In this document: in pieces, positions 18,757-41,630 of the stretch
Numbering within the stretch: the stretch's first letter is position 1
How the letters are laid out: the number at the start of each line of letters is the position of its first letter
Assembly: GCA_963842525.1 (NCBI GenBank)
Contig: CAWJGT010000003.1
Location: 96,001-160,000, forward strand
Direction of reading: 5' to 3'
Length of the DNA stretch: 64,000 bases
Source of the DNA: an uncultured Holophagales bacterium
GTDB lineage: Bacteria > Acidobacteriota > Thermoanaerobaculia > Multivoradales > UBA5704
Translations under genes and position numbers: made by a program
Notes under the pieces: generated by a model
What the model was told of the DNA's origin: nothing
What the model saw: only the letters and a program-made list of their open reading frames with translations
Database searches by the model: none

Positions 18757-19528
18757 GTGTCTCCGAGCCAGATCTTGATCGACGACGAACGTCGGGCGTT
18801 GCAGGAGTGCGAGGCGCGACTGCGCGAGGCGAGATCGGCGTTGGCGGCCCTCGCGGCCGGGACGGCCCATGAGGTGCGCAACCCCCTCTTCGGCATCTCG
18901 GCAACCCTCGACGCTCTTGAAGCCAACCTGACCGCCCCAGAAGAGATGCCCGAATACATCCGGGTCCTGCGCGAGCAGCTTCAGCGCCTGAGCGATCTGG
19001 CGAAGGACCTTTTCGATTACGGCAAGCCGCCGCGGCTCGACCTCCGGCCCGGCTCCCTCCAAACGGCCGCTGGATTGGCGGTCGAAGCCTGCGCCGCGCT
19101 GATCGGACAGCGCCGGGCCACGGTCGTCAACCTGATCCCGGAAGACCTCCCGCCCTTCCGCTTCGACCACGGCCGCATCGTGCAAGCACTGCGCAACCTG
19201 CTGGAGAACGCGGTCCTCCGTGCCCGCCCCGGCTCCGCGGTCGAGATCGACGCGGCGCCCAGCCGCCTGGAGGATTTGCCGGGCGTCGAGTGCGTGGTCA
19301 GCGACGCCGGCTCCGGCTTCAGCGTGGAAGACCTCCCCCGGATGTTCCAGCCGTTCTACTGCCGCCCGCGCGGCGCCACCGGGCTGGGCCTGTTCATCGT
19401 CCAGCGTATCGTGGACGAGCACGGTGGCCGGATCGTCGCCGCGAACCGTCCCGAAGGGGGGACCCGGATTTCTCTTTTCCTTCCCGTTCTTCCCGGATCA
19501 CCTCCGGGCGCGGAAGACGCGCTTCTAG
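18757..19528 (+). CDS. Cytoplasmic histidine kinase (HisKA plus HATPase) with no sensor domain; as given it reads in frame into the response regulator
   Basis: AHEVRNPL, NLLENA, D.GSG, GLGL..V.RIV.EHGG. A TAG at 19526-19528 becomes the stop if one G at 19506-19508 is spurious. Confidence 0.75.
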
Positions 19529-19551
19529 CGCCGTCAGGAAACCCGGGCGCG

Positions 19552-20901
19552 ATGGCCAGACACAAGATCCTCCTGGTCGACGACGAGGGAGGAGTGCGCT
19601 TCGGCATCCAGAAGTTCCTCGGCGCCAAGGGCTACGAGGTCCGGGAGGCGGACTCGTGCCAGGGGGCCGAGGAGCTCTTTCGCGATACGCGCCCCGACCT
19701 CGCCGTGATCGACTACCTGCTGCCGGACGGCACCGCCCTCGACCTGCTCCCCCGGCTGCGCCAGATCGATCCGGGGGTGCCCGTGCTGATCCTGACCGCC
19801 CACGGCTCGATCGACCTCGCCGTGCGCGCCATCAAAGAGGGCGCGGAGCAGTTCCTCACCAAGCCCGTCGAGCTGCCGGCCCTCCTGCTCGTCCTCGAGA
19901 AGCTGCTCGAGAACCAGCGCAACCGGCGCAAGCAGCTCGCCGGCACGAGCCAGCGCTCGCGGCAGGCCGTCGACCCCTTCCTGGGGAGCAGCGGCGCCAT
20001 TGGCCGGCTCTCCGAGCAGGCCGGCCGGCTGGCCCTGTCGGACAGCCCGGTCCTGATCGAGGGCGAGACCGGCACCGGCAAAGGGGTGCTCGCCCGCTGG
20101 CTCCACGAGCACGGCGCCCGTGCCGAGGAGGCGTTCGTCGACCTCAACTGCGCCGGCCTCTCCGAGGAGTTCCTGGAGACCGAGCTCTTCGGCCACGAAA
20201 GGGGGGCCTTCACCGGAGCGAGCGCCGCCAAGACCGGCCTCCTGGAGGTGGCGCACCGCGGCACCGTCTTCCTCGACGAGATCGGCGACATGAGCCTGGC
20301 GGTCCAGCCCAAGCTCCTCAAGGTCCTGGAGGACAAGAAGTTCCGCCGCCTCGGCGACATCCGCGACCGCTTCGTCGACATCCGCCTCCTGGCCGCCACC
20401 CACGAGACCCTGGCGTCCCAGGTGCGGGAGAAGCGCTTCCGCAGCGACCTCTACTTCCGCATCAGCACCCTGCCGCTGCGGGTGCCGTCTCTGCGCGAGC
20501 GCACGGAGGACATCCCTTTTCTGGCCCGCTACCTGCTCGGGCGCATGGCCGCCGACCTGGGGCGCGGCGAGGTCGAGCTTGCGCCGGCGGCCGAACGGGC
20601 CCTCCGGCAGTACGCCTGGCCCGGCAACATCCGCGAGCTGCGCAACGTACTGGAGAGAGCGCTCCTTCTGGGCGGACGGCAGGCGTTGGAGCCGCGCGAC
20701 CTCCTGTTCGACGCCGCGCCTTCCGGCTCCTGGCCGCAGGACACGCGCCTCACCCTCCGGGAGCTCGAAGCCAGCTACATCGAGCGCGTGCTGCAGGAGG
20801 AGCAGGGAAGGGTGACGGAGGCCGCACAACGCCTCGGCGTTCCCCGCAGCTCTCTCTACGAAAAGATCAAACGCTACGGCATCCCTGTGTCCAAGATCTA
20901 G
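19552..20901 (+). CDS. Sigma54-dependent response regulator (REC-AAA+-Fis HTH; NtrC/AtoC family)
   Basis: ILLVDDE, D.LLPD, GETGTGKG, GAFTGA, FLDEIG, WPGNIREL and a C-terminal HTH. Confidence 0.93.
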   Translation: MARHKILLVDDEGGVRFGIQKFLGAKGYEVREADSCQGAEELFRDTRPDLAVIDYLLPDGTALDLLPRLRQIDPGVPVLILTAHGSIDLAVRAIKEGAEQFLTKPVELPALLLVLEKLLENQRNRRKQLAGTSQRSRQAVDPFLGSSGAIGRLSEQAGRLALSDSPVLIEGETGTGKGVLARWLHEHGARAEEAFVDLNCAGLSEEFLETELFGHERGAFTGASAAKTGLLEVAHRGTVFLDEIGDMSLAVQPKLLKVLEDKKFRRLGDIRDRFVDIRLLAATHETLASQVREKRFRSDLYFRISTLPLRVPSLRERTEDIPFLARYLLGRMAADLGRGEVELAPAAERALRQYAWPGNIRELRNVLERALLLGGRQALEPRDLLFDAAPSGSWPQDTRLTLRELEASYIERVLQEEQGRVTEAAQRLGVPRSSLYEKIKRYGIPVSKI

Positions 20902-21184: not shown

Positions 21185-22267
21185 ATGCGCACGGACGAGC
21201 GCCGCACCCTCGAAGACCTCGGCTGGAGCGACTTCTTCGCGGCGGCCTTCGAGCCCCACGCGAAGCAGGGCCTGGTGCCGGGGCGGGTCGTCCGGGAGGG
21301 CAAGGGAGTCTATGGGGTGTCGACGGGCGAGGGCGACCTCTCGGCGGCGGCGTCCGGACGGCTGTGGCATGGCGAGGAAGGCGTAGGCCGGCCGGCGGTC
21401 GGGGACTGGGTCGCTCTACGACTCCCCACCCTGCCAGAGGAGCCGGGGCTGATCCGTGCCATCCTGCCGCGCAAGAGCAAATTCTCCCGCAAGGCCGCGG
21501 GATCCCGCACCGAAGAGCAGGTGGTGGCGGCCAACGTGGACACGGTCTTCCTGGTGACAGGCCTCGACGGCGACTACAACCTGCGGCGGATCGAGCGCTA
21601 CCTGGCCGTAGCCTGGGACGGCGGCGCCGACTCGGTGATCGTCCTCAACAAGGCCGACCTCGTGCCGGACATCGACGAGGTGGTCCGCGAGGTCGAAACG
21701 GTCGCCCTGGGGGTGCCCATCCACGCCGTCAGCGCCAAGGCGGGGCAGGGGATCGAAGCCCTCGCCGCCTACCTCGAGCCGGGGCGGACCGTGAGCCTCC
21801 TCGGCTCGTCCGGCGCCGGCAAGTCGACGATCATCAACCGGCTCCTCGGCTCCGACGTCCAGCGGGTCGCGGAGGTGCGGGAGAGCGACCAGCGGGGCAG
21901 GCACACCACCACCCACCGCGAGCTCTTCCTGGTCCCCTCCGGCGGGCTCGTCCTCGACACCCCGGGCATGCGCGAGCTCCAGCTCTGGGACGCGGACGAA
22001 GGGATCGAGGCCGCCTTCGCCGACATCGAGGAGCTGGCCCAGGGATGCCGCTTCGGCAACTGCACCCACAATGGCGAGCCCGGCTGCGCCGTCGAAGAAG
22101 CGGTCCAGACCGGCGCGCTCGACCCCGACCGGCTGGAGAGCTGGCGCAAGCTCCAGCGCGAGCAGCACCAGGTCCACCTCCGCCAGGACGGTCTCGCCCG
22201 CCTGCGCGAGAAGCAGCGCATCAAGGCCATCCACAAGGCCGCCAGCCGGTTCCGCCCTAGGGGGTGA
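21185..22267 (+). CDS. rsgA: Ribosome small subunit-dependent GTPase A
   Basis: PAVGDWV, NKADL, GSSGAGKST, GRHTTT, DTPGMRE, CRFGNCTH.EPGC. Confidence 0.95.
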   Translation: MRTDERRTLEDLGWSDFFAAAFEPHAKQGLVPGRVVREGKGVYGVSTGEGDLSAAASGRLWHGEEGVGRPAVGDWVALRLPTLPEEPGLIRAILPRKSKFSRKAAGSRTEEQVVAANVDTVFLVTGLDGDYNLRRIERYLAVAWDGGADSVIVLNKADLVPDIDEVVREVETVALGVPIHAVSAKAGQGIEALAAYLEPGRTVSLLGSSGAGKSTIINRLLGSDVQRVAEVRESDQRGRHTTTHRELFLVPSGGLVLDTPGMRELQLWDADEGIEAAFADIEELAQGCRFGNCTHNGEPGCAVEEAVQTGALDPDRLESWRKLQREQHQVHLRQDGLARLREKQRIKAIHKAASRFRPRG

Positions 22268-22631
22268 GGCGCCAAAGCGGAGCCGGTCAAGGCCTGCGCC
22301 GGATCTCGGCACTGTACTTTCTTGCATTTAGCTTCACCGAATTGCGTCCCGCCGGGTACCATGACGCCTTGTTTGTGGTAATGTTGGCCTACCGCGCAGC
22401 CGTAGCAGGAACTGCCCCGCATCCGATGACGCGCTAGAGGCTTTGGGCTTGAGGGGCGGTGACCATGGCGGATGAAGTACCGGGGGGATGCCCCCTCCGG
22501 AGCCGGGATGCCTGAAGGCTGATGCTGCGCGGACCGTGCATGGACTTGTCGCTAATTTTCGGATCGTCTCCGTCACCCGCCGCGTGGCCTCTAGAGAGGT
22601 GCGCGGGCGTCGCCGTTGAGGAACCCCCAGC

Positions 22632-25600
22632 ATGAACGCACTCCGTCTCGCTCGCACCCGCTCTGGTCTCGCTCTGCTGCTGACCGTCCTGAGCCTCGCT
22701 CTAGCAGCGAGCTTCGTCCCGGCATCCGCCTTCGCTGCCGGTGGTGCAACAGATCCCTACACGCTGGGAGTGTGCCGGATCTACGACAGCCGGGTTAGCG
22801 GCGGTCCGATTGTGATCAACCCTCCGGACCTCGAAGCGATCCGGACGATCCCGGTAATCGGCGGGGCATGCGGTCTGCCGGCCGACACCAGGCACGTTAC
22901 GCTCAACGTGACAGTCGTCGAGGCTACGGCGCCAGGCCAAGTGAGCCTGTCCCCGGGAGACATAGCGCCGCCAGCCCTTCCTCCGGCTCCTCCGGGAGGC
23001 GAAGCGCTAGCGGTGGCAGGACTTTACTTCGATCCTGGTTTCCCGGGGCGTTCTACGCTACCAAACCCGATGACCGTACAGCTCGCAGGAGACGGGAGCG
23101 GCACGATCAAGGTTGCAGCTCGGCTGCGGAATCAGCCCGCTGCAGGTGCTTATCCGCTGAGTTTTCATTTGGTCCTGGACATCAACGCGCACTTCCGGGA
23201 TTCCGCCGTGGCGCAGGATGACGCCCCCCCAGACATTCCAACTGTACCGGAAGATAGCGCCCCCACAACGATTGACGTACGGGCGAACGATCTCGGCCCG
23301 CCGGGCGGCGGACCGTTCAGCATCGACTCCGTGACACAGCCCGCTAACGGAGAGGTGGTCATCACCAACTCCGGCGCGGACCTCACCTACGAACCGAATC
23401 CGGATTACTGCAACAGTCCGGGTGGGACGCCGGACACATTCACCTATACGCTGGAGCCGAGTCCCTCTACGGCCACGGTCAGCATGACGGTGATTTGCAG
23501 CAATGATGCGCCGGTCGTGGATCTCGATCCGGACGACTCGGGCGGCAACCGCCCTGACTTCACAGCCACCTTCACCGAGGGAAGCGGCGGGGTCAAGATC
23601 GGTGACACGGACCTTGCGACAAGCGACGCCGACGACACCAACCTCCAGTCGGCGACGATCACACTGACCAACCGCCCGGACGGCGACGGTGTGGAATCGC
23701 TGAGCGCCGACACGACAGGGACGGCGATCACCGCCCTCTACACGCCGGCGACGGGCGTCCTCGCATTGACGGGCCCGGATACAGTGGCGAACTTCCAGCA
23801 GGTCCTGCGCACGGTCGAGTACGACAACACCTCGATCAACCCCGACACCACGGCGCGTTCGATCACGGTGGTGGCCGACGACGGCGACGACGTGAGTGCC
23901 ACGGTGACGAGCACGATCAACATCGGCGCAACCAACGACGCGCCAGAGCTGACAGCCGGCGGAGTGCTGAACTATGCCGAGGATGATCCGCCGACCGCGA
24001 TCGACACGACGATCACGGTAAGCGATGACGACGATACGAACCTGGAGTCGGCGACGGCGCAGATCACGGGCAACTATCAGAACGGCCAGGACGTGCTGAG
24101 CTTCGTGGACACGCCGAACATCACGGGCGTCTTCACCGCGGCGACGGGGACGCTGACGCTGACGGGGACGGATACGCTGGCGAACTGGCAGACGGCCCTG
24201 CGCAGCGTGCGTTACAACAATACGTCGGACAATCCGTCGACGCTGGCGCGGACGGTGACGTGGATCGCCAGCGACGGCAGCGACCCGAGCGCGCCGGTCA
24301 CCAGCACGATCAACGTCAGCACGACCAACGATGCGCCGGAGCTGACGGCCGGCGGAGTGCTGAGCTATACCGAGAACGATCCACCGGCCGCGATCGATAC
24401 GACGATCACGGTGAGCGATGACGACGACACGAACCTGGAGTCGGCGACGGCGCAGATCACGGGGAACTACCAGAACGGGGCGGACGTGCTGAGCTTCGTG
24501 GACACGCCGAACATCACGGGTGTCTTCACCGCGGCGACCGGTACGCTGACCCTGACGGGGACAGATACGCTGGCGAACTGGCAGACGGCCATGCGCAGCG
24601 TGCGTTACAACAATACGTCGGACAATCCGTCGACGCTGGCGCGGACGGTGACGTGGATCGCCAGCGACGGCAGCGCGTCGAGCACGCCGGTCACCAGCAC
24701 GGTCAACGTCAGCGCGACCAACGACGCGCCAGAGCTGACCGCCGGCGGAGTGCTGAATTATGCCGAGGGTGATCCACCGGCCGCGATCGACACGACGATC
24801 ACGGTGAGCGACGACGACGACACGAACCTGGAGTCGGCGACGGCGCAGATCACTGGGAATTACCAGAACGGGGCGGACGTGCTGAGCTTCGTGAACACGC
24901 CGAACATCACAGGCATCTTCACTCCGGCGACTGGCACGCTGACCCTGACCGGCAGTGACACGCTGACGAACTGGCAGACGGCGTTGCGCAGTGTGCGTTA
25001 CAACAATACGTCGGACAATCCGTCGACGCTGGCGCGGACGGTGACGTGGATCGCCAGCGACGGCAGCGACCCGAGCGCGCCGGTCACCAGCACGATCAAC
25101 GTCAGCACGACCAACGATGCGCCGGAGCTGACGGCCGGCGGAGCACTGACCTATACCGAGAACGATCCGCCGGCCGCGATCGATACGACGATCACGGTGA
25201 GCGATGACGACGATACGAACCTGGAGTCGGCGACGGCGCAGATCACGGGCAACTATCAGAACGGCCAGGACGTGCTGAGCTTCGTGAACACGCCGAACAT
25301 CACGGCCATCTTCACCGCGGCGACGGGGACGCTGACGCTGACCGGGTCGGACACGCTGGCGAACTGGCAGACGGCCCTGCGCAGCGTGCGCTACCACAAC
25401 ACCTCGGACAACCCATCGACGCTGGCGCGGACGGTGACGTGGATCGCCAACGACGGAGACGCGTCGAGCACGCCGGTCACCAGCACGATCAACATCAGCG
25501 CAGTCAACGATGCGCCGGAGCTGACGGCCGGCGGAGCGCTGAGCTATACCGAGAACGATCCGCCGACCGCGATCGATACGACGATCACGGTGAACGACGA

Positions 25601-28600
25601 CGACAACACGAACCTGCAGTCGGCGACGGCGCAGATCACGATGAACTATCAGAACGGCCAGGACGTGCTGAGCTTCGTGAACACGCCGAATATCACGGCA
25701 GTCTTCACCGCGGCGACGGGGACGCTGACGCTGACCGGGTCGGACACGCTGGCGAACTGGCAGACGGCCCTGCGCAGCGTGCGCTACCACAACACCTCGG
25801 ACAATCCATCTACGCTGACGCGGACGGTGACCTGGATCGCCAGCGACGGCAGCGCCTTGAGCACGCCGGTGACGAGCACGATCAACGTCACGGCGGTGCC
25901 TGACGCGCCGACCTGCAACCCGCTGCCGGGCGCCTTGAACTACAGCACGCCCGGCAACACACAGCTCCACGCCGCTGGCGCTACGCTGCCTGGAGTGACA
26001 TCGATCAGCGACCCCAAAAACGCTCTGACCGCGGCGAATGCCACTGACGCGGACGGTCCGCCGCCGATCACTGTCGTCCCGTTCTCGGGCAACACATCCG
26101 GAGGCGATTGGGTTCTGAATGGCGACGGCTCGTTCACGTTCGTACCAAACGCTGGCTTTACCGGGCCGGCGACCTTGGCCTTCCAGGTCAAGGACAACGG
26201 GGGGGCGACGGGCAGTTGCGCCACGATCAACGTCAACGTGGGGCCGAGGGTCTGGTACATCCACGATGTGGTCGATGGAAACAACCCGGCAGGCGGCGAC
26301 GGCCGCTCTACGAACGCTTTCGACAGTGTCACGGCGTTCAACACCGCGGCCACGGACAACAACGGCGACATCATCTTCGTGTTCGAAGGGAACACCGGCG
26401 CGACGCCGCACACCGGGAGCATTACGCTCAAGGACGGCCAGAAGCTCTGGGGTCAGGGGATCGCCCTCAACGTACCTGGCTTCGGCACGCCGCTGGTGAC
26501 CGCGACCAACAAGCCTCGGATCCGGACGACGACCGCAAGCACCAATGTCGTCTCCGTCCCCGCGACCGCCGGCAACCGGAGCAACGTCGAGATCCGCGGT
26601 CTCGATCTCGAGGCGACCGGTGCCACCTCGAACGCCATCGACGTGACCTCCTCCGGCGGCAACACCGTGGGGATCACGATCAACGACAACAACGTCCGCG
26701 GCGCCACGGCCGAAGGCATCGATCTCAACGCTGGCGCCACGGCCGCGTTCTCGGCGACCGTTCAGAACAACACGGTCACCGCGGCTGGTAACGGTATTGA
26801 CACCCGGGTGAGCTCGACGGGCACGACGACCGTGACGGCGTCGAGCAACATGATCACCTCCACGGGCGGCAACGCCTTCGACGCACGGACCCTCGCGGGG
26901 GCGAGCGCGCTGCGGGTGGCTCTCGACAGCAGCAACGTCGCGGCGGCGGGCACCGGCATCCTCATCGACGGCTCGGTCGCCGGTACGACGACCATCACCG
27001 GCTTCGCGAATAACGTGGTCGATGGCAGCACGGTAGGCACCGGTATCAGCATCACAAGCGCCACCTTCGACGCCAATACGACCACGGCGGGCTTCCAGCA
27101 GGTCTCGGGCGGCAACACAGTTGTGGGAGCCACGGGGGTGGGCAACGGAGTTGGCGGCTCGGGCATCTTTATGACGAATGTGGCCGGCGATCTCGCCTTC
27201 ACCGATTTGAGTGTCTTCGCCGAGGGCGTGGGCGGCACCGGTCTGCGCATCAACGGCACCGGCGCGGTGAACACGGGGGCAGGCACGGGTACTCGGGTGA
27301 CCGTGAACAGCGCCGCTCCGGGGAGGATCATCGAGGCGACCGGCGGGCCGGCCGTGGACGTCAACAACGCGACGATCGATCTCCAGCTCTCGAGCCTCAA
27401 GAGCACCACCACCAGCACCGGCGTGTCGCTAGTGAACGTCTCCGATGGTTCAACGACGAACGCCTTCTTCTCGGCACCGTCCGGTAGCAGCATCACGGCA
27501 AGCTCCGGGGCCGGTCCGGCCTTCAACGTCAGCGGCGGCAACGCGAAGATCACCTACGGCGGCACGATCACCAACAACGGCACCGGCCGGGCCGTATCCA
27601 TCGCAACTTGGAGTGGCGACGACGCCGTACCCGGCGACGACCTGCTGCTCTCAGGTGCTATCGACGAGAACGGCGCCGGTATTCTAGTGAATGGCAACGG
27701 CGGCAGTCGCTCGATCACCTTCAGCGGTGGGATGGATATTGACACCACGACCGGCGAGGGCTTCGCTGCGACGAGCAACACCAACACTGGTGGGCTGCAT
27801 ATCACTGGCACAAACGATATCACCTCGACCAGCGCCACCGCGCTGCGCGTCACCAGTACCACCATCGGTTCGTCGAATCTAAACTTCCGCAACATCTCGT
27901 CCGGCAACAACACTGCTGCCGCCGACCCGGCGAGCGGCATTGTGCTCAGCAACACGGGTTCGTTGGGTGGACTGACAGTGACGGGCACTGGCAGTGCCGA
28001 TAGCGGTGGCATCATTCAGAACACCACGAGCCATGGTATATCGCTGACCAGCACGCTGAGCCCGTCGTTCAGCCGGATGCGGATTCAGAACACGGCGGGC
28101 AATGGTGTCAGGGGTACGCAGGTAACCAACTTCACGTTTACAAACGGCACGATCGACAACTCTGGTACTGACCTTGCCGCCGAAAGGTCGAACATCGCGT
28201 TCAACGATACTGCGGCAGGGACGGAGAACAACCTCTCAGGGACAGTTACGATCACCGGAAACACGCTAACGAACGCCTACTACCACGGGGTGGATATCTT
28301 CAACTTCAACGGCACGATCGCCGACGCCACCATCTCGAGCAACACGATCACCAGCACGAGCTCGACGGCGACGTCGAAGGGCTCGGGCATCCGCTTCGTC
28401 GCGTTCGGCTCCGCGACAACCGTTGCCAACGTCACCAAGGCGACGATCGCCAACAACGTCGTCTCCAACTTCCCGAGCGCCACCGGGATCCAAGCGCAGG
28501 GCGGCAACGGGAACGCCGCCGGACCGGCCGGCGTCTTCGGGACCTCGGGAAGTGCCACGAACGTCATCGCGATCACCGGGAATCGCGTCGCGGGGTTCAG

Positions 28601-29291
28601 CCCAGCGATCAGATTGGGCGCCTTTGCGATCCTCGCGAACGTCAACGGCAAGGGCCAAGGGAACTTCGACATCTCGGGCAACGGCACTGCGGCCAACCCG
28701 GTGACAAACGTCATTGGCAATGCGATTTCGCAGGGCTCTTTCGGACAGGCGATCGTCACCTCGAACATCAACAACAACGTCATCGTTGCGAATAACCAAG
28801 CCGGCGCGCAGGGCATCGGCGCCGGTACGAGCCAGACCTTCGGAGCCGCCGATACGCCGAGCCTGACGGTCACGATTTCGAACAACCAGATCAGCCAGAC
28901 CGACGGCAACGGTATCCTCGTGACAGCGCGCGACGCCACAGGGACGGTCCGGGCGAAGATCCAGAACAACACCGTAGCAGCGCCTCTTGGCGGAAATAGG
29001 AACGGCATCCGGGTGGACGCCGGCAACGCCGTGAGCGTCAACGACTCCGTGTGCCTGAACATCTCGGGTAACACCAGCGCAGGCGTCGGCCTCTCTCCGG
29101 AGGGTATCGGTCTTCGCAAGCAGGGAACCATTGCGGCTACCAACAACTTCGCCCTTCACGGGTTTGCGACTTCCCCTGCCAACCAGGCGCAGACTGCGGC
29201 CTACTCCACATCTCAGAATCCGGGGAGCGCGAGTGGGACGTTGATCATCAGCGGCGACAACTTCAATTCCCCAACCTGCTCGTTCCCGTGA
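22632..29291 (+). CDS. Giant secreted adhesin-like protein (2219 aa): signal peptide, N-terminal beta domain, Ig/cadherin-like repeats, parallel beta-helix region
   Basis: Signal peptide ending ASAFA; NDAP-bounded repeats; T/N/G/S-rich C-terminal half with I.NN.I motifs. Confidence 0.88.
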   Translation: MNALRLARTRSGLALLLTVLSLALAASFVPASAFAAGGATDPYTLGVCRIYDSRVSGGPIVINPPDLEAIRTIPVIGGACGLPADTRHVTLNVTVVEATAPGQVSLSPGDIAPPALPPAPPGGEALAVAGLYFDPGFPGRSTLPNPMTVQLAGDGSGTIKVAARLRNQPAAGAYPLSFHLVLDINAHFRDSAVAQDDAPPDIPTVPEDSAPTTIDVRANDLGPPGGGPFSIDSVTQPANGEVVITNSGADLTYEPNPDYCNSPGGTPDTFTYTLEPSPSTATVSMTVICSNDAPVVDLDPDDSGGNRPDFTATFTEGSGGVKIGDTDLATSDADDTNLQSATITLTNRPDGDGVESLSADTTGTAITALYTPATGVLALTGPDTVANFQQVLRTVEYDNTSINPDTTARSITVVADDGDDVSATVTSTINIGATNDAPELTAGGVLNYAEDDPPTAIDTTITVSDDDDTNLESATAQITGNYQNGQDVLSFVDTPNITGVFTAATGTLTLTGTDTLANWQTALRSVRYNNTSDNPSTLARTVTWIASDGSDPSAPVTSTINVSTTNDAPELTAGGVLSYTENDPPAAIDTTITVSDDDDTNLESATAQITGNYQNGADVLSFVDTPNITGVFTAATGTLTLTGTDTLANWQTAMRSVRYNNTSDNPSTLARTVTWIASDGSASSTPVTSTVNVSATNDAPELTAGGVLNYAEGDPPAAIDTTITVSDDDDTNLESATAQITGNYQNGADVLSFVNTPNITGIFTPATGTLTLTGSDTLTNWQTALRSVRYNNTSDNPSTLARTVTWIASDGSDPSAPVTSTINVSTTNDAPELTAGGALTYTENDPPAAIDTTITVSDDDDTNLESATAQITGNYQNGQDVLSFVNTPNITAIFTAATGTLTLTGSDTLANWQTALRSVRYHNTSDNPSTLARTVTWIANDGDASSTPVTSTINISAVNDAPELTAGGALSYTENDPPTAIDTTITVNDDDNTNLQSATAQITMNYQNGQDVLSFVNTPNITAVFTAATGTLTLTGSDTLANWQTALRSVRYHNTSDNPSTLTRTVTWIASDGSALSTPVTSTINVTAVPDAPTCNPLPGALNYSTPGNTQLHAAGATLPGVTSISDPKNALTAANATDADGPPPITVVPFSGNTSGGDWVLNGDGSFTFVPNAGFTGPATLAFQVKDNGGATGSCATINVNVGPRVWYIHDVVDGNNPAGGDGRSTNAFDSVTAFNTAATDNNGDIIFVFEGNTGATPHTGSITLKDGQKLWGQGIALNVPGFGTPLVTATNKPRIRTTTASTNVVSVPATAGNRSNVEIRGLDLEATGATSNAIDVTSSGGNTVGITINDNNVRGATAEGIDLNAGATAAFSATVQNNTVTAAGNGIDTRVSSTGTTTVTASSNMITSTGGNAFDARTLAGASALRVALDSSNVAAAGTGILIDGSVAGTTTITGFANNVVDGSTVGTGISITSATFDANTTTAGFQQVSGGNTVVGATGVGNGVGGSGIFMTNVAGDLAFTDLSVFAEGVGGTGLRINGTGAVNTGAGTGTRVTVNSAAPGRIIEATGGPAVDVNNATIDLQLSSLKSTTTSTGVSLVNVSDGSTTNAFFSAPSGSSITASSGAGPAFNVSGGNAKITYGGTITNNGTGRAVSIATWSGDDAVPGDDLLLSGAIDENGAGILVNGNGGSRSITFSGGMDIDTTTGEGFAATSNTNTGGLHITGTNDITSTSATALRVTSTTIGSSNLNFRNISSGNNTAAADPASGIVLSNTGSLGGLTVTGTGSADSGGIIQNTTSHGISLTSTLSPSFSRMRIQNTAGNGVRGTQVTNFTFTNGTIDNSGTDLAAERSNIAFNDTAAGTENNLSGTVTITGNTLTNAYYHGVDIFNFNGTIADATISSNTITSTSSTATSKGSGIRFVAFGSATTVANVTKATIANNVVSNFPSATGIQAQGGNGNAAGPAGVFGTSGSATNVIAITGNRVAGFSPAIRLGAFAILANVNGKGQGNFDISGNGTAANPVTNVIGNAISQGSFGQAIVTSNINNNVIVANNQAGAQGIGAGTSQTFGAADTPSLTVTISNNQISQTDGNGILVTARDATGTVRAKIQNNTVAAPLGGNRNGIRVDAGNAVSVNDSVCLNISGNTSAGVGLSPEGIGLRKQGTIAATNNFALHGFATSPANQAQTAAYSTSQNPGSASGTLIISGDNFNSPTCSFP
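23934..25898 (+). repeat. Five near-identical 393-bp (131-aa) intragenic tandem repeats, plus one diverged copy upstream
   Basis: NDAPELTAGG starts at 23934, 24327, 24720, 25113 and 25506. Confidence 0.95.
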
Positions 29292-29388
29292 GGGGAGAGG
29301 AGCCGGGAAGGTCGGAATCGTACTTTGGGAGAGGAAACAGTAGCCGATCCGGAGCCCGACGAGCTCCAGAAAAGGAGGAGGAGGGAGA

Positions 29389-29895
29389 ATGGCGGAACCG
29401 TTCTTGTCCGAGATACGGATCATGAGCTTTGTCTACGCCCCGAAAGGTTGGGCCCTCTGCAATGGGCAGCTCCTGCCCATCAATCAGAACCAGGCGCTCT
29501 TCTCACTGCTTGGCACCACCTTCGGCGGTGACGGTCGCGTGAACTTTGCGCTTCCTGATCTGCGTGGCAGGACACCCATCCATGTCGGCTCCGGTCACAC
29601 ACTGGGCGAGCGCGGAGGCGAGCAGGCTCATACGCTCTCAATCGCAGAGCTCCCCGAGCACGTCCACGTGTGGAACGCGAATGGGTCACCCGCGACGACC
29701 AATACGCCCACCAACGCGCTGTTGTTAGCGGGGTCCACGGGCGAGCAGGCCTGGGGGCCGGCCACCAACCTGGTCGCCATGAGCCCGGCGACGATCCTCA
29801 ACGTGGGCGGCTCACAAGCACACCTGAACATGCAACCTTTTTTAACCCTCAGCTTCTGCATCGCCCTGCAGGGCATCTTCCCGAGCCCGAACTAG
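29389..29895 (+). CDS. Phage tail-collar domain protein 1 (MdpB-like)
   Basis: PFLSEIR..F..AP.GWALCNGQLLPI.QNQALFSLLGTTFGGDG..NFALPDLRGR; C-terminal H.NMQPFL..FCIALQGIFP. Confidence 0.92.
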   Translation: MAEPFLSEIRIMSFVYAPKGWALCNGQLLPINQNQALFSLLGTTFGGDGRVNFALPDLRGRTPIHVGSGHTLGERGGEQAHTLSIAELPEHVHVWNANGSPATTNTPTNALLLAGSTGEQAWGPATNLVAMSPATILNVGGSQAHLNMQPFLTLSFCIALQGIFPSPN

Positions 29896-29908
29896 GAGGA
29901 GAGCCGCA

Positions 29909-30418
29909 ATGGCACAACCATATGTCGGTGAGATCCGCATGTTTGCCGGGAACTTCGCTCCCGCCGGATGGATGTTCTGCGAGGGGCAACTCCTGCCAAT
30001 CTCCGAGAACGAGACGCTCTTTCAACTGATCGGGACGACCTATGGCGGCGATGGAGAGTCGACCTTCGCTCTGCCCGACCTGAGGGGCCGCATCCCGATC
30101 CACCAAGGGAACGGCTTCATCCTGGCGGAAACTGGGGGTGCGGAGGAGATCACGCTGACCGTCAATCAAATCCCCGCGCACTCCCACGCCGCGCTCGGGT
30201 CGACGAACACGGGCACCGGGACGGCGCCGCTGAACAGCGTGCTGTGCAACTTGGCAGGCGCCACCAACGCGGGCTACGGGACGGACAACCCGCAAACCAA
30301 CCTGAGCCCGCAGAGCGTGTCGCCGGTCGGTGGAAGCCAGCCACACACGAACTTCCAGCCCTACCTGTGCGTCGATTTCATCATTTCATTGTTCGGGATC
30401 TTCCCGAGCCCGACCTAG
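29909..30418 (+). CDS. Phage tail-collar domain protein 2
   Basis: PYVGEIRMFAGNFAPAGWMFCEGQLL..TTYGGDG..FALPDLRGR; RBS AGGAGG. Confidence 0.92.
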   Translation: MAQPYVGEIRMFAGNFAPAGWMFCEGQLLPISENETLFQLIGTTYGGDGESTFALPDLRGRIPIHQGNGFILAETGGAEEITLTVNQIPAHSHAALGSTNTGTGTAPLNSVLCNLAGATNAGYGTDNPQTNLSPQSVSPVGGSQPHTNFQPYLCVDFIISLFGIFPSPT

Positions 30419-30426
30419 GAGGAGAC

Positions 30427-30945
30427 ATGGCGGATCCGTTCGTTGCGGAAATCCGGATCTTTCCGTTCAACTTCGCACCCAGGGGATGGGCATGGTGCGA
30501 TGGGCAGTTGATGCCGCTGTCGCAGAACACGGCGTTGTTCTCGTTGTTGGGTACCACCTATGGGGGAGACGGCAAGTCCAACTTCGCGCTGCCGGACCTC
30601 CAAGGCCGAGCTCCAATGCACCCCGGCCAAGGTCCAGGACTCTCACTGCACGACCTCGGAGAGACCGGGGGTAGCGAGACGGTCACCCTGCTCGAAAGTG
30701 AGATTCCATCGCACAGCCATGCCCTGCGAGCCTCCGCGCAGGACGGGACGACGCGCATCGTAGCCGGACAACAACCGGCAACGGGTATCGGAGTTTCTTT
30801 CTATGGGCCGCAGCCCTCGACCGTGACCCTTAGTCCCAGTGCGCTTACACCCGCCGGTGGCGACCAGCCGCACAACAACCTTCAGCCATACCTGACTTTC
30901 TACTTCTGCATCGCGCTCCAGGGCGTCTTCCCGCCCCGGGGCTGA
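30427..30945 (+). CDS. Phage tail-collar domain protein 3
   Basis: DPFVAEIRIFPFNFAPRGWAWCDGQL..NFALPDLQGR..HNNLQPYL; RBS AGGAGG. Confidence 0.92.
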   Translation: MADPFVAEIRIFPFNFAPRGWAWCDGQLMPLSQNTALFSLLGTTYGGDGKSNFALPDLQGRAPMHPGQGPGLSLHDLGETGGSETVTLLESEIPSHSHALRASAQDGTTRIVAGQQPATGIGVSFYGPQPSTVTLSPSALTPAGGDQPHNNLQPYLTFYFCIALQGVFPPRG

Positions 30946-31021
30946 CCAACGAGCTACACCGGGCGGCGGCTGGATGAGCCGCCGCCTTTGCATAGATGCT
31001 TTTATTTATCTGTTCGCAGAG

Positions 31022-31546
31022 ATGATCGCCGAGAGACCAGCGCCACCGTCCGTCGTCCTCCGTCCGATCACGGCGGAGGACATGGATTTCCTTCTCCGGC
31101 TCTATCGCAGCACCCGGGAAGAGGAGCTGGCGATGGTCGTGGACTGGTCCGAGGAGCAGAAGGACTGGTTCATCCGCATGCAGTTCAACGCCCAGCATGC
31201 GTGGTACCAGGAGCATTACGTCGGGGCTTCCTTCGACGTGATCCTGGTCGATGGCGAGCCTGCCGGACGCCTCTATGTCCACCGGCGCGAACGCGAGATC
31301 CGGCTGGTGGACATTTCCTTCCTGCCTGAGCTTCGCAACCGCGGTCTTGGCTCGGCTCTTCTGCACGGCCTCATGGCGGAGGCCGAGGCGGCGGGAAAAC
31401 CGCTCACGATTCATGTCGAGAAATACAACCCCGCCATGCGCCTTTACGAGCGGCTCGGCTTCAAACCCATCGGCGAGACCGGGCCGTATGACCTCATGGA
31501 ATGGAAGGCGCCTGGGGCGGCTGATCAGTTGAACACCGCCTCATAG
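31022..31546 (+). CDS. GNAT-family N-acetyltransferase
   Basis: Acetyl-CoA motif LPELRNRGLGSALL and NPA.RLYERLGF. Confidence 0.9.
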   Translation: MIAERPAPPSVVLRPITAEDMDFLLRLYRSTREEELAMVVDWSEEQKDWFIRMQFNAQHAWYQEHYVGASFDVILVDGEPAGRLYVHRREREIRLVDISFLPELRNRGLGSALLHGLMAEAEAAGKPLTIHVEKYNPAMRLYERLGFKPIGETGPYDLMEWKAPGAADQLNTAS

Positions 31547-31818
31547 CACATCCCCTGTCCATCCGGGCCGATGGGGACCAGGAAGATGTCTATCGGCTCC
31601 ATCTGCACGTGCTCCACCCGGTAGATGGCCTGCGGCAGGACGGTCTGGCGCGGGCCGCGGAAGTACACCGAATAGGGCTGCTTGCGGGGGCCGTCGTGCG
31701 GCTCGTGCAGCCGCACCTGGTAGAGGACGGCTTCCAGCGGAGCCTCGGCGCCGTAATGGATGCGGAAGGGCGTATTGAGATGCTCCTCGAACGAGGAGTG
31801 GGTTAAATCCTGCAGCAT
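31525..31818 (-). CDS. DUF6916-like small protein
   Basis: F..HLNT.F, R.P(Y/F)S..FRGP...LPQ.IY..EH..IFLVPIGP..YEAVFN; RBS AGGAGG; convergent overlap with the GNAT gene. Confidence 0.8.
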   Translation of the reverse strand: MLQDLTHSSFEEHLNTPFRIHYGAEAPLEAVLYQVRLHEPHDGPRKQPYSVYFRGPRQTVLPQAIYRVEHVQMEPIDIFLVPIGPDGQGMCYEAVFN

Positions 31819-31912
31819 GGATCGATTCCTCCTGTCTGGGCTCAGCCCGACTCTAAACGACCGGGACGGGGATGTCGACCCGCCAAGCGAGCCGCTGCGA
31901 TAAGCTGAGGGC

Positions 31913-33686
31913 ATGGGACGAACGGTCGTTGCCTTCGCAGCGCTGCTCGCCTTCGGAGCTGTCGCCGTCCATGCCTCCGGCAGCCCCACGTGGCTCGAGC
32001 GGAGCAACGAGAACACCCGGCTCATGCTCGACGTGCAGGCACGGTTCAGTCCCGAGACCTCCGGCGTGTTCGGGGTCGAGGGGCTCGACGAGATGGTGGT
32101 GGGCCTGCCGCTCGACCGCCCCGCCCAGGAGGCGCAGGCCTGGGAGACGGCGGTGGCCGAGCTCGAACGGAGGCTCGCGGTCGAACGGGATCCGGCGGTG
32201 CGCCTGGACCTCGAAATCCTGATCGATGCCGGGAAGCGGTACGTCCAGGACCTGCGTCTCGAACGGAAATACTTTCTCCCTGTCTTCAACCTGCCGCAGA
32301 TGGTCTTCCAGGGGCTTCGCGCCCTGCTCGAAGACCGGGTGCCGAAGGAGCGCCATCCGGCCGCGCTGGTGCGCCTGCGCAAGTACGCCGGGGTCGAGCC
32401 GGGCACCACGTCGCTCGCCGCCCAGGCGACCGCCTTGCTGCGCGACCGGCTCGATGATCTCGACGATCCCGGGCTGCTCCCGCCGTTCCGCGACGACCTT
32501 GAGCGGCAGCTCAACAACTCGTCCCGCTTCGTGACAGGGACCGCCGATCTGTTCCGGCAATACGGTTTGACCGGCTGGGAGGAGCCCTACGCGAAGCTGA
32601 AGGACCAGCTCGACGCCTATGACGCGTTCCTCCGCGCCGAGGTGCTGCCGCGGGCCCGCCAGGACTTCCGGCTGCCCGAGGAGGTCTACCGTTTTCGCCT
32701 CCGCCAGCGCGGCATCGACATGAGCCTCGAAGATCTCGTGAGCCGGGCGAAGACCAGCTTCCGGGAGATCCAGAACGAGATGCAGACCGTGGCCGCGCTG
32801 GTCGCGAAGGAGCGCAATCTTCCTTCTTCTGACTACCGCGACGTCATCCGTGCCTTGAAGCGCGAGCAGCTCGTCGGCGAAGCGATCGTCCCGCACTACC
32901 AGGCGCGTATCGCCGACCTCGAACGGCTGATCCGCGAAAACAAGGTGGTGACGCTGCCGCAGCGGTCGATGCGTATTCGTCTCGCCAGCGCGGCCGAGAG
33001 CGCCGCCGTTCCCATGCCGAACGTGCCGCCCGTGCGCCTCCTCGGCAACACCGGCGAGACCCCCGAGCTCGTCCTGCCTCTGCGCATCCCCGGTGAAGCG
33101 GGCGAGGGACAGGTCGGCTTCGACGACTTCACGTTCGAAGCCGCCTCGTGGACGCTGACCGCCCACGAAGGGCGTCCCGGGCACGAGCTGCAGTTCAGCT
33201 CGGTCATCGAAAAAGGGGTGTCGATCGCGCGGGTCATGTACGCCTTCAACAGCGTCAACGTCGAGGGGTGGGCGCTCTACGCCGAGGCGGAGATGAAGCC
33301 GCTGCTGCCGCTCGACGGCCAGCTCATCGCTCTCCAGCACCGCCTGCTGCGCGCCGCTCGCGCCTTCCTCGATCCCGGGCCTGCAGACCGGCGCCATCTC
33401 GCGCGAGGAGGCGTTCCGCGTCCTCGAAGAGGAGGGTGCCTTCTCCCATGCCATGGCCCTCCAGGAGGTCGAGCGCTACACCTTCCGCACTCCGGGTCAG
33501 GCGCCCTCCTATTTCGTCGGCTATTGCCGTCTCCTGGAGCTGCGGACCGATGTCGAGCGGTTGCTCGGCGACCGCTTCGACCGCCAGACCTATCACGATT
33601 TCGTCCTCGCCCAGGGATTGCTCAGCCCGGCGCTGCTGCGCAAGGTGGTGATGGAGCAGTTCGTGCCGGCGCAACGGCCCAGATGA
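31913..33686 (+). CDS. DUF885-family secreted metallopeptidase-like protein with a +1 frameshift near 33375
   Basis: HEGRPGHELQ, EGWALYAE and RAAR..LD.GL; the C-terminus EVERY...PGQA.SY..G is in the next frame. Confidence 0.85.
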
Positions 33687-33749
33687 CGAATGGATATAGG
33701 ACCTCGTGACCTCGCAATGTTAAGCTGAAGGTCATCGAAGGGAGCTCTT

Positions 33750-35213
33750 ATGGCGGGAGAGGAAAGAGCGAACAGGCCCAAGCGGTGCTTCGTTGTCATG
33801 GGCTTCGGGCTCAAGACCGACTACGTCACGGGGCGGAAGCTCGACCTTGACAAATCGTACCGGCTGCTGATCAAGCCCGTTGTGGAGGAGAACGGCCTCG
33901 CCTGCGTCCGGGCCGACGAGATCCGCCATTCCGGGAGCATCGATGTGCCCATGTATCAGGAGCTCTTGACGGCCGACCTTGTCATCGCCGACCTCTCGAC
34001 GGCAAACCCAAATGCTCTCTATGAGCTGGGAGTCCGGCACGCGTTACGGCCAGAGACGACGATCGTGATCTCCGAGAGCAAGTTCCCCTATCCTTTCGAC
34101 CTGAACCACATTTCGATCACCAGCTATACTCATCTGGGCGAGGCCATCGATTACGACGAGGTCACGCGATTCCGCCATGTGTTGGGCGAGACGATCCAGG
34201 CCGTCCTCAAAGAACCGAAGACGGACAGTCCGGTCTACACGTTCCTGAGCCAACTCACGCCTCCCTCGCTCGGCGGGCCTGCCGCCCAGGCGATGGCGCA
34301 AGCCGAAGAGGCCCTGGAGCAGGCGGGTAAGGCCGTGGCTGCGGTGGCGGACAGTATCCAGCCTCCCGAGCCCGGCCCCGAGGACAGGACGCTGGCCATG
34401 CTCATCGCGGAGGGAGAACAGGCGATCCGCGCGGACCGCTTCTCCGACGCGAAGACCCTGTTCGATCGCGCCCGGAGGCGCTCCATGGACAGGCCCGACA
34501 GCGATCCCCTGCGGCATGATCCCTACCTCATCCAGCGCTCGGTGCTCGCGACCTACAAGGCCCAGCAACCCGACGAGCTCTCGGCTCTGCGCGCGGCGCA
34601 AGATGTGCTTGCTCCGCTCGGCCCCGAGGAATCCAACGATCCGGAGACGGTGGGGCTGGCTGGCTCCATCGCGAAGCGGCTCTTCGAAAGGGGCGAGGGG
34701 GATGAGCATCTCACTCAAGCCATCTGGTATTTCGGGCGGGGCTACTATCTCCGGAACGATAGTTATAACGGGATCAGCCTGGCCTATTTGCTGAACGTCC
34801 GCACCGATACTCCGCTCGACCCGACGAATGAGGACAAAATCGCCGATCTCGTCTGGGCCAATCGCATCCGGCGCGAAATCCTCCCTCTGTGCCACCGGGA
34901 ATTGCAGGAGATCCTCGATCGCGAGGAGCGGACGCAGACGAAACACGACGATCTCGTGAAGGAGCAGAAGGCTCGGGACCGAGAAAAGAAATTCTGGTGC
35001 ATTGCCACAATGGCTGAAGCCCAGCTCGGCCTCGGCGAGCTCGCCAATTTCGAGCGGATGCGATCCCAAGCCCGGAAGCACTTTCCCGCAGACTGGATGG
35101 TGTCTACCTTCGAGGAGCGTATCGAGAGGCTGAGAAGGCTTCTCGAAAAGCACGGTCATCTCCTGAATCCGCCATGGCCCGGAAGCCTGGCCGGCCCTGG
35201 CGGTCCGGGCTGA
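33750..35213 (+). CDS. Deoxyribohydrolase/TIR-like domain plus TPR (DUF4071/MAP3K TRAF-binding-like) protein
   Basis: CFVVMGFG, RADE, ADLVIADLST.NPNALYELGVRHAL; DPET.GLAG.I.KR; Y.GI.LA.L; W..AT.AEA. Confidence 0.8.
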   Translation: MAGEERANRPKRCFVVMGFGLKTDYVTGRKLDLDKSYRLLIKPVVEENGLACVRADEIRHSGSIDVPMYQELLTADLVIADLSTANPNALYELGVRHALRPETTIVISESKFPYPFDLNHISITSYTHLGEAIDYDEVTRFRHVLGETIQAVLKEPKTDSPVYTFLSQLTPPSLGGPAAQAMAQAEEALEQAGKAVAAVADSIQPPEPGPEDRTLAMLIAEGEQAIRADRFSDAKTLFDRARRRSMDRPDSDPLRHDPYLIQRSVLATYKAQQPDELSALRAAQDVLAPLGPEESNDPETVGLAGSIAKRLFERGEGDEHLTQAIWYFGRGYYLRNDSYNGISLAYLLNVRTDTPLDPTNEDKIADLVWANRIRREILPLCHRELQEILDREERTQTKHDDLVKEQKARDREKKFWCIATMAEAQLGLGELANFERMRSQARKHFPADWMVSTFEERIERLRRLLEKHGHLLNPPWPGSLAGPGGPG

Positions 35214-35274
35214 GTAGCCCGTCAGACTCTCCTTCTCGCCCCGACCTGCTGGTCGGACCGCCGGAGAACATGAA

Positions 35275-35827
35275 ATGCGAACGACACTCCCTGCTGCAGT
35301 GATCTGCCTTCTGGTCGCCAGCAGGCGGCGACCTTGGCATCGATCCCCAGCGCGTGGCCGGCTACGGGACTTCCGCCGGCGGTCATCTAGTGGCCAGCGC
35401 AGTCACCGTAAGTTGCCCGCCAGCAGGCACCGAAACGGCACGTGCCGAGCCGGACCTGCTCCTGTTGTGGTCGCCTGCGCTCGACATGGCGCGGGACGGA
35501 TGGTTTGAGAAGAAGCTGCAGGGCCGGGCTCCGGTGAACGACTACTCGCCCGCAGACCACGTCAGCGCGACGACACCGCCGACGAGCATCGTCCACGGCG
35601 CCGAGGATACGCTGACGCCGCTCGCGGGCGCCCGACGTTACTGCGATCGATTGGTCGCGGCCGGAAAAGCCTGCGAGCTGAACGTGTACAAGGGCGTCGG
35701 GCACCTCCTGACGAGGAACCTGGCGAACCAGGAGAGCGACTACGATCCCGACCCCGAAGCACGCGCCGACGGCATCGCGCAACATGCGAGCTTCCTTCGG
35801 AAGATGGGCTTCATTCCATCTGGGTAG
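35275..35827 (+). pseudogene. Internally deleted alpha/beta hydrolase
   Basis: A signal-peptide start is joined out of frame to IDPQRV..G.SAGGHL..IVHG.ED..GVGH; the N-terminal HGG region is missing. Confidence 0.7.
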
Positions 35828-37138: not shown

Positions 37139-37211
37139 CTTTTCTGTTGGAGCCTATTTGGCAGGCGGAGAGACTTGGTACACTTCGACGGACTTTCGAG
37201 GACAACAGATC

Positions 37212-41629: not shown

Positions 41630-41630
41630 C

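Follow-up and report, generated by a model that had tools for sequence, protein, structure and literature searches.

Introduction

Genes for collar-domain 'tail fibre' proteins are annotated in thousands of bacterial genomes, where they are commonly read as prophage debris. A locus in an uncultured Holophagales bacterium of the phylum Acidobacteriota raises the question of what such genes do on a bacterial chromosome when their neighbours are not phage genes. We analyzed a stretch of 64,000 nucleotides from this genome (GenBank assembly GCA_963842525.1, contig CAWJGT010000003.1, positions 96,001 to 160,000; hereafter the window), in which three short consecutive genes for proteins that carry PF07484, the tail-collar domain of phages (collars 1 to 3), lie between a gene for a giant secreted protein on one side and genes for a GNAT acetyltransferase and a DUF6916 protein on the other. 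An earlier, sequence-only reading had drawn this set of six genes, with the DUF6916 gene in convergent orientation, and had interpreted it as a domesticated phage-fibre system for adhesion or antagonism; all six genes were confirmed in place by open reading frames (ORFs) and Pfam matches, and our analysis bears out part of that interpretation.

We find here the minimal version of a non-phage cassette that is both widespread and horizontally mobile. One large subset of bacterial collar genes belongs not to phage remnants but to a self-contained unit, and this unit is exchanged among phyla as far apart as Acidobacteriota, Chloroflexota, Bacteroidota and Actinomycetota. We lean, with somewhat better than even confidence, towards the view that this cassette builds an extracytoplasmic binding device, in which a domesticated fibre-tip module works with the giant surface protein. 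In such a device a receptor-binding tip taken from phages would be joined with a giant secreted protein, and a phage part would have been domesticated with no contractile machine. The hosts are abundant in soil, water and the rhizosphere, and the ligand of the device could matter for aggregation, biofilms and host association.

Conservation and spread of the cassette

One genome per species was scanned with an alignment of the three paralogues as the query, and the loci were annotated from their longest ORFs and local profiles. At least 597 collar relatives were confirmed among the 608 pattern matches listed, and the best 80 of these relatives, together with the window, make up the 81 regions of our locus survey. 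In all 41 loci that are well flanked, that is, with at least 5 kb on either side of the triplet, a homologue of the giant directly adjoins the collars (39 by BLAST clustering and two by profile), while the GNAT gene is present in 40 and the DUF6916 gene in 38, the last count being corrected for over-extended ORFs. Across all 80 loci, GNAT was found in 74, DUF6916 in at least 69 and the giant in at least 67, with the misses falling mostly at contig ends. No other gene is widely shared, the next cluster occurring in at most about 21 of the 81 regions. The expectation of the sequence-only reading that collar triplets keep company with large surface-type proteins, and its statement that similar gene sets exist in diverse bacteria, are both borne out by the neighbourhood survey.

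The 80 loci, whose phyla were assigned by hand, come from Acidobacteriota (27), Pseudomonadota (23), Chloroflexota (11), Verrucomicrobiota (10), Bacteroidota (6), Actinomycetota (2) and Gemmatimonadota (1), and the recurrence of one arrangement across so many phyla lies far beyond chance. The cassette also occurs on plasmids of Deinococcota and Rhodobacterales, and DUF6916 genes were found on 26 plasmids or chromids. Named, non-pathogenic carriers include Ruegeria sp. TM1040, Mesorhizobium, Flavobacterium phragmitis, Spirosoma luteum and Chiayiivirga flava DSM 24163. For 47 of 75 triplets the closest relative belongs to another phylum, and in cross-phylum pairs such as Burkholderiales and Roseiflexaceae the synonymous divergence (dS) of the conserved collar scaffold is near 0.5, a value that codon bias may lower. 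Taken with the substitution rates given below, these sequence comparisons indicate strong purifying selection on the cassette and its transfer between distant phyla. In annotated copies the collars are called 'tail fiber protein', while the other genes carry the names 'hypothetical', 'GNAT', 'VcbS' or 'choice-of-anchor D'. Neither a description of the cassette nor any mention of DUF6916 was found in the literature searched, which left most subscription journals outside its scope.

The cassette is not accompanied by phage genes. Pfam matches to capsid, sheath, tube or baseplate families are absent from the 37 other ORFs of the window, in agreement with the sequence-only reading, and no phage structural gene is conserved within 10 kb of the triplet in the 80 loci. 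A search of 50,697 phage records gave no match to DUF6916. The collar unit does have phage relatives, at 581 places in 539 records; they are single-copy and all less than 60% identical, the best listed matches reaching at most 39%.

Additional genes were occasionally seen between collar 3 and GNAT. A GT4 glycosyltransferase gene occupies this position in two loci (L010, 12193–13395; L059, 2563–3774) and gives a hint of glycan chemistry, and a DDE transposase gene is found there in another (L007, 11734–12816).

Three collar lineages

The three collars of the window match PF07484 with 94.8, 101.3 and 95.7 bits, respectively (cut-off 24), and share 51–53% pairwise identity. Each starts with MA(E/Q/D)P(F/Y), only five residues before the collar domain and with no visible hydrophobic leader, and each carries a C-terminal H-x-N-x-Q-P motif (HLNMQP, HTNFQP and HNNLQP). 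Alignments confirmed the architecture described in the sequence-only reading, namely a conserved N-terminal collar and C-terminal motif, a variable middle and no signal peptide. The unit matches phrog_9116 over residues ~7–164 (expect values, E, of 8e-22 to 5e-29), and phage minor tail proteins cover 91–96% of collar 2 in tblastn searches. Its matches include a solved long tail fibre (8kec; E 5e-8) and T4 gp12 (1ocy; E 4.9e-5), and the units hold the fibre-tip unit alone, with no additional domain. The collar triplet consists of ancient paralogues of a complete phage fibre tip unit, which is made up of the collar, an H-x-H motif, a distal excursion and a returning C-terminal strand.

Both histidines of the P-x-H-x-H motif are invariant across the three collar lineages, and the motif aligns with the H-x-H of 8kec. 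In T4 gp12 and gp37 histidines coordinate a metal, and by analogy the collar motif may bind metal as well.

We built a tree of the 225 collar proteins encoded in 75 clean triplets. Each of the three positions is monophyletic in it, with all 75 of its 75 members together (supports of.989,.999 and.959 for positions 1, 2 and 3, respectively). Mean identity is 72–74% within a position across phyla, compared with 47–52% between the positions of one locus, and collar 1 orthologues are 66–84% identical across phyla. The gene order is fixed, and the median intergenic gap in these triplets is 11 nt; in the window the gaps are 13 and 8 nt, and both contain GAGGAG.

Natural fusions of the units were also observed. 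With the collar 1 profile, 1,936 proteins longer than 300 aa were matched at E ≤1e-20, and the best 120 of these include 40 single chains of three units and 30 two-unit fusions, among the latter a 'phage tail protein' of Paenibacillus. The order 2-1-3 was seen in 19 of the 40 three-unit chains, the units being typed approximately by their best profile. Some fused relatives are named 'microcystin-dependent protein' in their source records.

The position-specific lineages and the natural three-unit chains, together with a virophage precedent in which, according to the accessible part of the report, three collar proteins co-purify 1:1:1 (PMC12724248), make the case for an A-B-C trimer. A 1:1:1 heterotrimer is therefore strongly but indirectly supported: the heterotrimeric tip proposed by the sequence-only reading has gained separate ancient lineages, single-chain forms and a precedent, all of them indirect. 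A fold that normally forms homotrimers would here offer a candidate for a natural obligate heterotrimer, one that also comes in single-chain versions.

Hypervariable tip segments

Conservation along the units was analyzed from an alignment of 52 sequences for each collar lineage. Consensus identity drops to 28–59% at residues ~95–140, compared with 82–98% at residues 1–90 and from ~140 to the end, which leaves a hypervariable segment of ~45 residues in each unit. We estimated the ratio of nonsynonymous to synonymous divergence (omega) for the 201 of 2,926 triplet pairs whose scaffold dS lies between 0.05 and 1. The scaffold has a median omega of 0.12 (interquartile range.09–.15) and the variable segments one of 0.77 (.63–.91), with 15% of pairs above 1 in the latter.

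The variable segment can be placed on the fold, since 8kec aligns through the collar and the H-x-H and then again at the C-terminal Q-P-Y-L, so that the segment forms an excursion between the two. It occupies the same position as a flexible 'head patch' (residues 120–145) described for the collar proteins of virophage DSLV2 in the accessible part of that report, and by this analogy it is probably the distal binding end.

A Gemmatimonadales contig (L002, 1–15034) carries three triplets and two giants within 15 kb. Two of these triplets are near-identical (scaffold dS 0.011), while the third has diverged (nonsynonymous divergence, dN, of 0.24 in the scaffold and 0.82 in the tip).

The giant secreted protein

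The giant of the window opens with a signal-like leader, MNALRLARTRSGLALLLTVLSLALAASFVPASA/FA, and nearly all full-length homologues have a hydrophobic N-terminal leader, signal peptides being called by eye and by simple hydrophobicity rules. Pfam matches in the window giant are confined to Big_9 and cadherin-like domains, and its 131-aa repeats form five near-identical copies. Across 69 homologues the repeats are not conserved; conservation lies roughly at residues 1150–1300 and 1600–2200. The consensus of this core opens with V-W-Y-V...GDG...PF.T...GD.I.V and closes with C-x(1-6)-P, and the window giant itself ends in C-S-F-P. Pfam gives no beta-helix match in the C-terminal half of the window giant. 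Leads towards such a fold come from a PF13229 match in one homologue (L045), from Atlas neighbours with Beta_helix/NosD domains (a lead only) and from weak profile matches to GH110 and mannuronan epimerase, and the conserved core is probably a right-handed beta-helix.

The position of the core follows the gene layout. Where the giant lies upstream of the triplet, the core is at the C-terminus in 38 of 38 cases; of the 24 giants that lie downstream, 18 have the core at the N-terminus, directly behind the signal peptide (both counts with rough domain boundaries). The DNA that codes for the core therefore adjoins the collars in both layouts, with the variable arrays outside. In the surveyed loci the giant is on the same strand as the collars.

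Terminal sorting domains differ between lineages. A type IX secretion system (T9SS) type A sorting domain ends both complete Bacteroidota giants (L055, 29.5 bits; L077, 39.9 bits; cut-off 23) and is not present in the window giant, while RTX repeats were found in one actinobacterial giant.

GNAT and DUF6916 as a pair

The GNAT orthologues (n = 78) are 35–73% identical and can be aligned only from about residue 25 of the window protein, so the true start is probably M17. An RNRGLG motif at residue 121 is what we take to be the acetyl-CoA motif. The DUF6916 protein matches PF21880 with 98.9 bits (cut-off 27); its identity outside the window's own class is 27–44%, and its named homologues are from Thermoanaerobaculia. 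An AlphaFold2 model built from 58 sequences (predicted local distance difference test 95.1, predicted template modelling (TM) score.86) consists of a short N-terminal helix followed by a six-stranded beta-barrel. An Atlas search returned DUF6916 clusters alone. We considered a phage neck, stopper or tube-like barrel, PilZ and Psb28 as possible relatives, and the resemblance was too weak (TM score ≤0.46) for assignment to any of them. The cassette would provide a first functional context for a family of about 6,000–9,700 sequence clusters (among 1.84 billion representatives, 9,715 clusters at E ≤1e-3 and 6,237 clusters at 50% identity at ≤1e-10).

The two genes are closely linked. The gap between them is at most 100 bp in 55 of the 72 loci that have both, and they overlap in 34 of the 72; the window pair is convergent, with 3' ends overlapping by 22 bp (31525–31546). 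The two genes converge in 41 of these 72 loci and run in one direction in the other 31, and no divergent pair was seen. This conserved overlap could couple the expression of the two genes. The distance matrices of GNAT and DUF6916 correlate with r.58, compared with.07–.29 for those against the collars. A specific co-variation between DUF6916 and the tips was not supported (r.22; partial r.07, p.08, once GNAT is controlled). In addition, two natural proteins (P0122, 265 aa; P0126, 263 aa) consist of a GNAT followed by DUF6916. Adjacency, co-variation and these two fusions suggest that GNAT and DUF6916 act as a pair.

The substrate of the GNAT may lie in the collars themselves. GNAT shows a weak similarity to RimI and N-terminal acetyltransferases and the collars have no invariant lysine, which led us to consider N-terminal acetylation of the conserved collar Ala-2; this is only an idea.

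In toxin–antitoxin pairs of the TacT/AtaT type, a small DNA-binding antitoxin (RHH/DUF1778) is encoded beside the GNAT. We rejected such a pair here, since the partner of GNAT is the six-stranded beta-barrel DUF6916 and there is no PADLOC match: the anti-phage defence models of PADLOC gave no match for the five small proteins or for the C-terminal half of the giant.

Export and cellular location

The five small proteins of the window (three collars, GNAT and DUF6916) carry no export signal. Other loci encode one of two accessory proteins with a signal for the twin-arginine translocation (Tat) pathway. A second, Tat-tagged DUF6916 paralogue, with a leader of the S/T-R-R-x-F-L type, is found in 17 loci, and an unrelated twin-arginine protein of 205–285 aa is encoded between collar 3 and GNAT in 21 others (L001, L004, L005, L007, L012–L014, L017, L019, L020, L027, L028, L034, L036, L043, L065, L069, L072, L075, L079 and L080). 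The two kinds never occur in the same locus, one or the other is present in 21 of the 41 well-flanked loci, and neither is encoded in the 64-kb window. The unrelated family has no Pfam or NCBIfam domain match except for a sub-threshold TAT_signal in one member, and a remote relationship to DUF6916 was rejected (hhalign probability 0.65%). A single origin of the Tat-tagged DUF6916 proteins was considered; they form four pure clades in a tree, although the domain is too short for this to decide the matter. One protein (P0123) combines a Tat leader with two DUF6916 domains, and two others (P0145 and P0258) have a Tat leader and one.

Export signals are also present on fused relatives of the collars. 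In 30 of the 40 three-unit chains a hydrophobic leader stops just ahead of the conserved QPYVGEIR, and 37 of the best 120 longer relatives end in a PEP-CTERM anchor. A collar-domain protein, which may or may not belong to this cassette, is reported in the exoproteome of Ruegeria pomeroyi (PMC4949626). The Sec leaders and PEP-CTERM anchors of the fused relatives, with the Tat-tagged accessories, indicate that the cassette family acts outside the cytoplasm in many lineages.

The pairing of leaderless collars with a Tat-tagged protein resembles, as a pure analogy, the hitch-hiker export known from HybO/HybC and DmsA/DmsB of E. coli, in which a partner that is signal-less, cofactor-bearing and already assembled passes the membrane while it is bound to a twin-arginine subunit. 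The cassette may be a new case of Tat-assisted export for a signal-less complex. Unlike the hitch-hiker systems, half of the cassette loci, the window included, have no Tat-tagged gene.

A proposed mechanism and its alternatives

The extracytoplasmic binding device that we favour could work as follows. The three collars would assemble 1:1:1 into a pseudo-threefold knob with a near-invariant scaffold and a histidine-bound metal inside the trimer, and the three hypervariable segments would form its ligand-binding end, the ligand probably being a glycan. The giant would be exported by Sec, its beta-helix module would work with the collar knob, and its immunoglobulin (Ig)- and cadherin-like arrays and lineage-specific sorting signals would give reach and anchoring. 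DUF6916 would serve as an adaptor that holds the trimer and presents it to the cytoplasmic GNAT, and the Tat-tagged DUF6916 paralogue, where present, would escort the folded trimer across the membrane.

A more elaborate form of this proposal, which we regard as speculative and doubtful as a whole, is an undescribed, mobile and polymorphic surface-recognition system, in which a metal-bound A-B-C tip forms in the cytoplasm, is held by DUF6916 for acetylation by GNAT, is exported folded and caps the beta-helix of the giant. Folded export would proceed by hitch-hiking on either Tat protein where one is present, and by another route elsewhere. The asymmetric trimer might have evolved to fit an asymmetric, monomeric, three-faced beta-helix stalk, and the three hypervariable loops, together with the variable arrays of the giant, might set partner specificity for kin, prey, hosts or matrix glycans.

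Several observations weigh against the binding device. The small proteins of the window are leaderless and come with no Tat accessory, which leaves their export unexplained and allows for a trimer that stays in the cytoplasm; a Tat accessory is likewise missing from 20 of the 41 well-flanked loci. DUF6916 is missing from three of the well-flanked loci (L014, L017 and L066), one of which (L066) also has no GNAT. By its sequence the GNAT is a generic one, and the best match among relatives of solved structure, to a protein annotated as an N-terminal acetyltransferase, reaches just 1e-5. Fold searches with the DUF6916 model gave nothing significant (lowest E-values of 0.055 in PDB, for a lambda neck chain, and of 0.008 in BFVD; TM score ~0.46). 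The Mantel correlations between the gene families perhaps reflect nothing beyond shared ancestry, and the mean omega of the tips is below 1, which is compatible with relaxed constraint as much as with diversifying selection. Finally, in the annotated copy on the megaplasmid of Ruegeria TM1040, the gene for the large protein is oriented divergently to the collars.

The leaderless small proteins and the loci with no Tat accessory leave room for a role inside the cell, in which the trimer, GNAT and DUF6916 would not form a surface tip but would act on the giant before its export, in folding, modification or quality control, or on another cytoplasmic target. GNATs depend on cytoplasmic acetyl-CoA, and GNAT–DUF6916 fusions are necessarily cytoplasmic, as expected for such a role. 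We nevertheless consider it improbable, because fused relatives of the collar units bear Sec leaders and PEP-CTERM anchors, DUF6916 is found with Tat signals too, and a hypervariable distal segment would be unexpected in a housekeeping chaperone; the collar-domain protein in the partly accessible exoproteome report (PMC4949626) points in the same direction.

Antagonism, which the sequence-only reading had named beside adhesion, is slightly less probable still. Here a lectin-like trimer would be released against competitors, with GNAT and/or DUF6916 providing immunity or modification of the cell's own receptor. Variable tips, horizontal mobility and a contig (L002) whose several cassette copies differ in their tips would suit such a function, as would the fast evolution of DUF6916, since immunity proteins often evolve quickly. 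The cassette has no conserved toxin, lysis or release gene, however, and the collar units hold no domain beyond the fibre-tip unit; PADLOC found nothing, and the distances of DUF6916 follow those of GNAT more than those of the tips.

It is very improbable that the collar genes are spares for the fibres of a prophage, a tailocin or a contractile injection system elsewhere in the genome: although homology with the tips of minor tail proteins in phages extends over 91–96% of the unit, phage structural genes are absent from the 64 kb and are not conserved around the other loci, DUF6916 is absent from the phage records, phage units are single and distant, the constant partner is a Sec-secreted giant rather than a baseplate, and the shaftless collars have nothing to join a baseplate.

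Comparison with known systems

The closest parallel to the proposed binding device is the tail of virophage DSLV2 (Aquatic Virophage 1 lineage; J Virol 2025), which we know from the accessible part of its description. Its three co-purifying collar proteins form fibres of ~16 nm, and the tripartite tail binds Synechococcus cells, with lipopolysaccharide proposed as the receptor (PMC12724248). Like the cassette, the virophage has three consecutive, co-oriented PF07484 genes, with products of ~170–190 aa, a likeness drawn from description and not from sequence. Unlike the cassette, whose partners are the giant, GNAT and DUF6916 on bacterial chromosomes and plasmids, the virophage genes lie beside capsid genes in a virus, as far as that part of the description goes.

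The collars share with the tips of T4 gp12 and gp37 and with 8kec the collar domain, the H-x-H and a C-terminal Q-P-Y/F-L strand. The T4 proteins are homotrimers of one long, shafted chain in a virion, whereas the cassette encodes three short and different chains with no shaft and no virion.

Non-phage collar proteins have been described before as MrpB of Microcystis and RhiB of Rhizobium ('microcystin-dependent protein', COG4675), which are encoded in small operons (PMC3328848; PMC13133039) and which the accessible parts of these sources link to cell–cell or host interaction. By the same descriptions, rhiABC and mrpAB differ from the cassette in having one collar gene with the unrelated RhiA or MrpA under quorum-sensing or light control, and no giant, GNAT or DUF6916 is reported in those parts. 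LuxI and LuxR families are absent from the Pfam matches of the flanking ORFs in the window. MrpC was considered as a counterpart of the giant and rejected, being a 12-kDa pilin in the accessible part of its description (PMC12397347). Proteins of COG4675 have been detected in soil metaproteomes (PMC5579227).

Giant repeat adhesins with lineage-specific sorting include T9SS cargo such as SprB, PEP-CTERM proteins and RTX adhesins. The cassette giants resemble them in their signal peptide, their long Ig- and cadherin-like arrays and, in Bacteroidota homologues, the T9SS type A domain; they differ in sharing a conserved core, the putative beta-helix, that is always beside a collar triplet.

Features and genomic surroundings of the locus

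The features of the locus are collected in Table 1.

Table 1. Features of the collar cassette in the window (positions count from the first nucleotide of the window).
Feature	Position	Strand	Basis
Giant secreted protein, 2219 aa	22632..29291	+	ORF and translation; Pfam Big_9/Cadherin_4/5
Predicted Sec-type signal peptide of the giant, ~35 aa, ...ASA/FA	22632..22736	+	translation
Tandem array of the giant, 393-bp (131-aa) unit x 5.1	23902..25890	+	Tandem Repeats Finder, 90% matches
Conserved core of the giant, RVWYIHD motif (aa 1206) to C-terminus, putative right-handed beta-helix	26247..29291	+	conservation in 69 homologues
Collar 1, 168 aa	29389..29895	+	PF07484, E 2.9e-27
P-x-H-x-H motif, collar 1	29653..29667	+	alignments
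Hypervariable segment of collar 1, aa 92-140, probable distal tip	29662..29808	+	consensus identity, omega
Collar 2, 169 aa	29909..30418	+	PF07484, E 2.7e-29
P-x-H-x-H motif, collar 2	30173..30187	+	alignments
Hypervariable segment of collar 2, aa 92-141	30182..30331	+	consensus identity, omega
Collar 3, 172 aa	30427..30945	+	PF07484, E 1.6e-27; Gp10_C, 7e-6
P-x-H-x-H motif, collar 3	30706..30720	+	alignments
Hypervariable segment of collar 3, aa 97-144	30715..30858	+	consensus identity, omega
GNAT acetyltransferase	30974..31546 (probable start 31022)	+	PF00583, E 6.9e-12
DUF6916 protein, 97 aa	31525..31818	-	PF21880, E 1.8e-28
Sigma-70-like promoter match 5' of DUF6916	31850..31878	-	consensus match; 1 site against 1.3 expected, not significant

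The cassette lies inside a stretch of reduced G+C content, which falls to 0.62–0.65 at ~22–38 kb of the window, compared with ~0.69–0.70 around it. This stretch ends near a truncated S9 peptidase gene (35354–35827) and an ORF with both a phage-integrase N-terminal SAM-like domain and ankyrin repeats (36609–38111), and the region of ~22000–38000 looks like an island remnant. No tRNA gene is present in the window, and Rfam has no match in the locus or in the 64 kb. Pfam matches of the 37 other ORFs include DnaK, Hsp20, SpoIID, PFK, a copper ATPase, RsgA, CheR, MacB/HlyD and transposases. Mobile-element genes around the locus encode an IS3-type integrase-core transposase (12997–13920), an IstB-like ATPase (4925–6034) and a YhgA-like transposase (41630–42760).

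Two genes upstream of the giant, a single polypeptide (18757–20901, +) combines HisKA, HATPase_c, receiver, sigma-54 AAA+ and HTH_8 domains. The presence of this sigma-54 activator prompted a search for a sigma-54 promoter ahead of the giant, which was rejected, as matches were below chance expectation and the nearest site is wrongly spaced. Beside the cassette, a secreted DUF885 gene (31913–33709 and 33297–33686, both +) is frameshifted, with profile positions 23–442 in one frame and 442–532 in another; either the gene has decayed to a pseudogene or the assembly is wrong at this point. Two overlapping ORFs further upstream (9337–10863 and 10577–11779, +) each match aldehyde dehydrogenase and could be a frameshift or tandem fragments.

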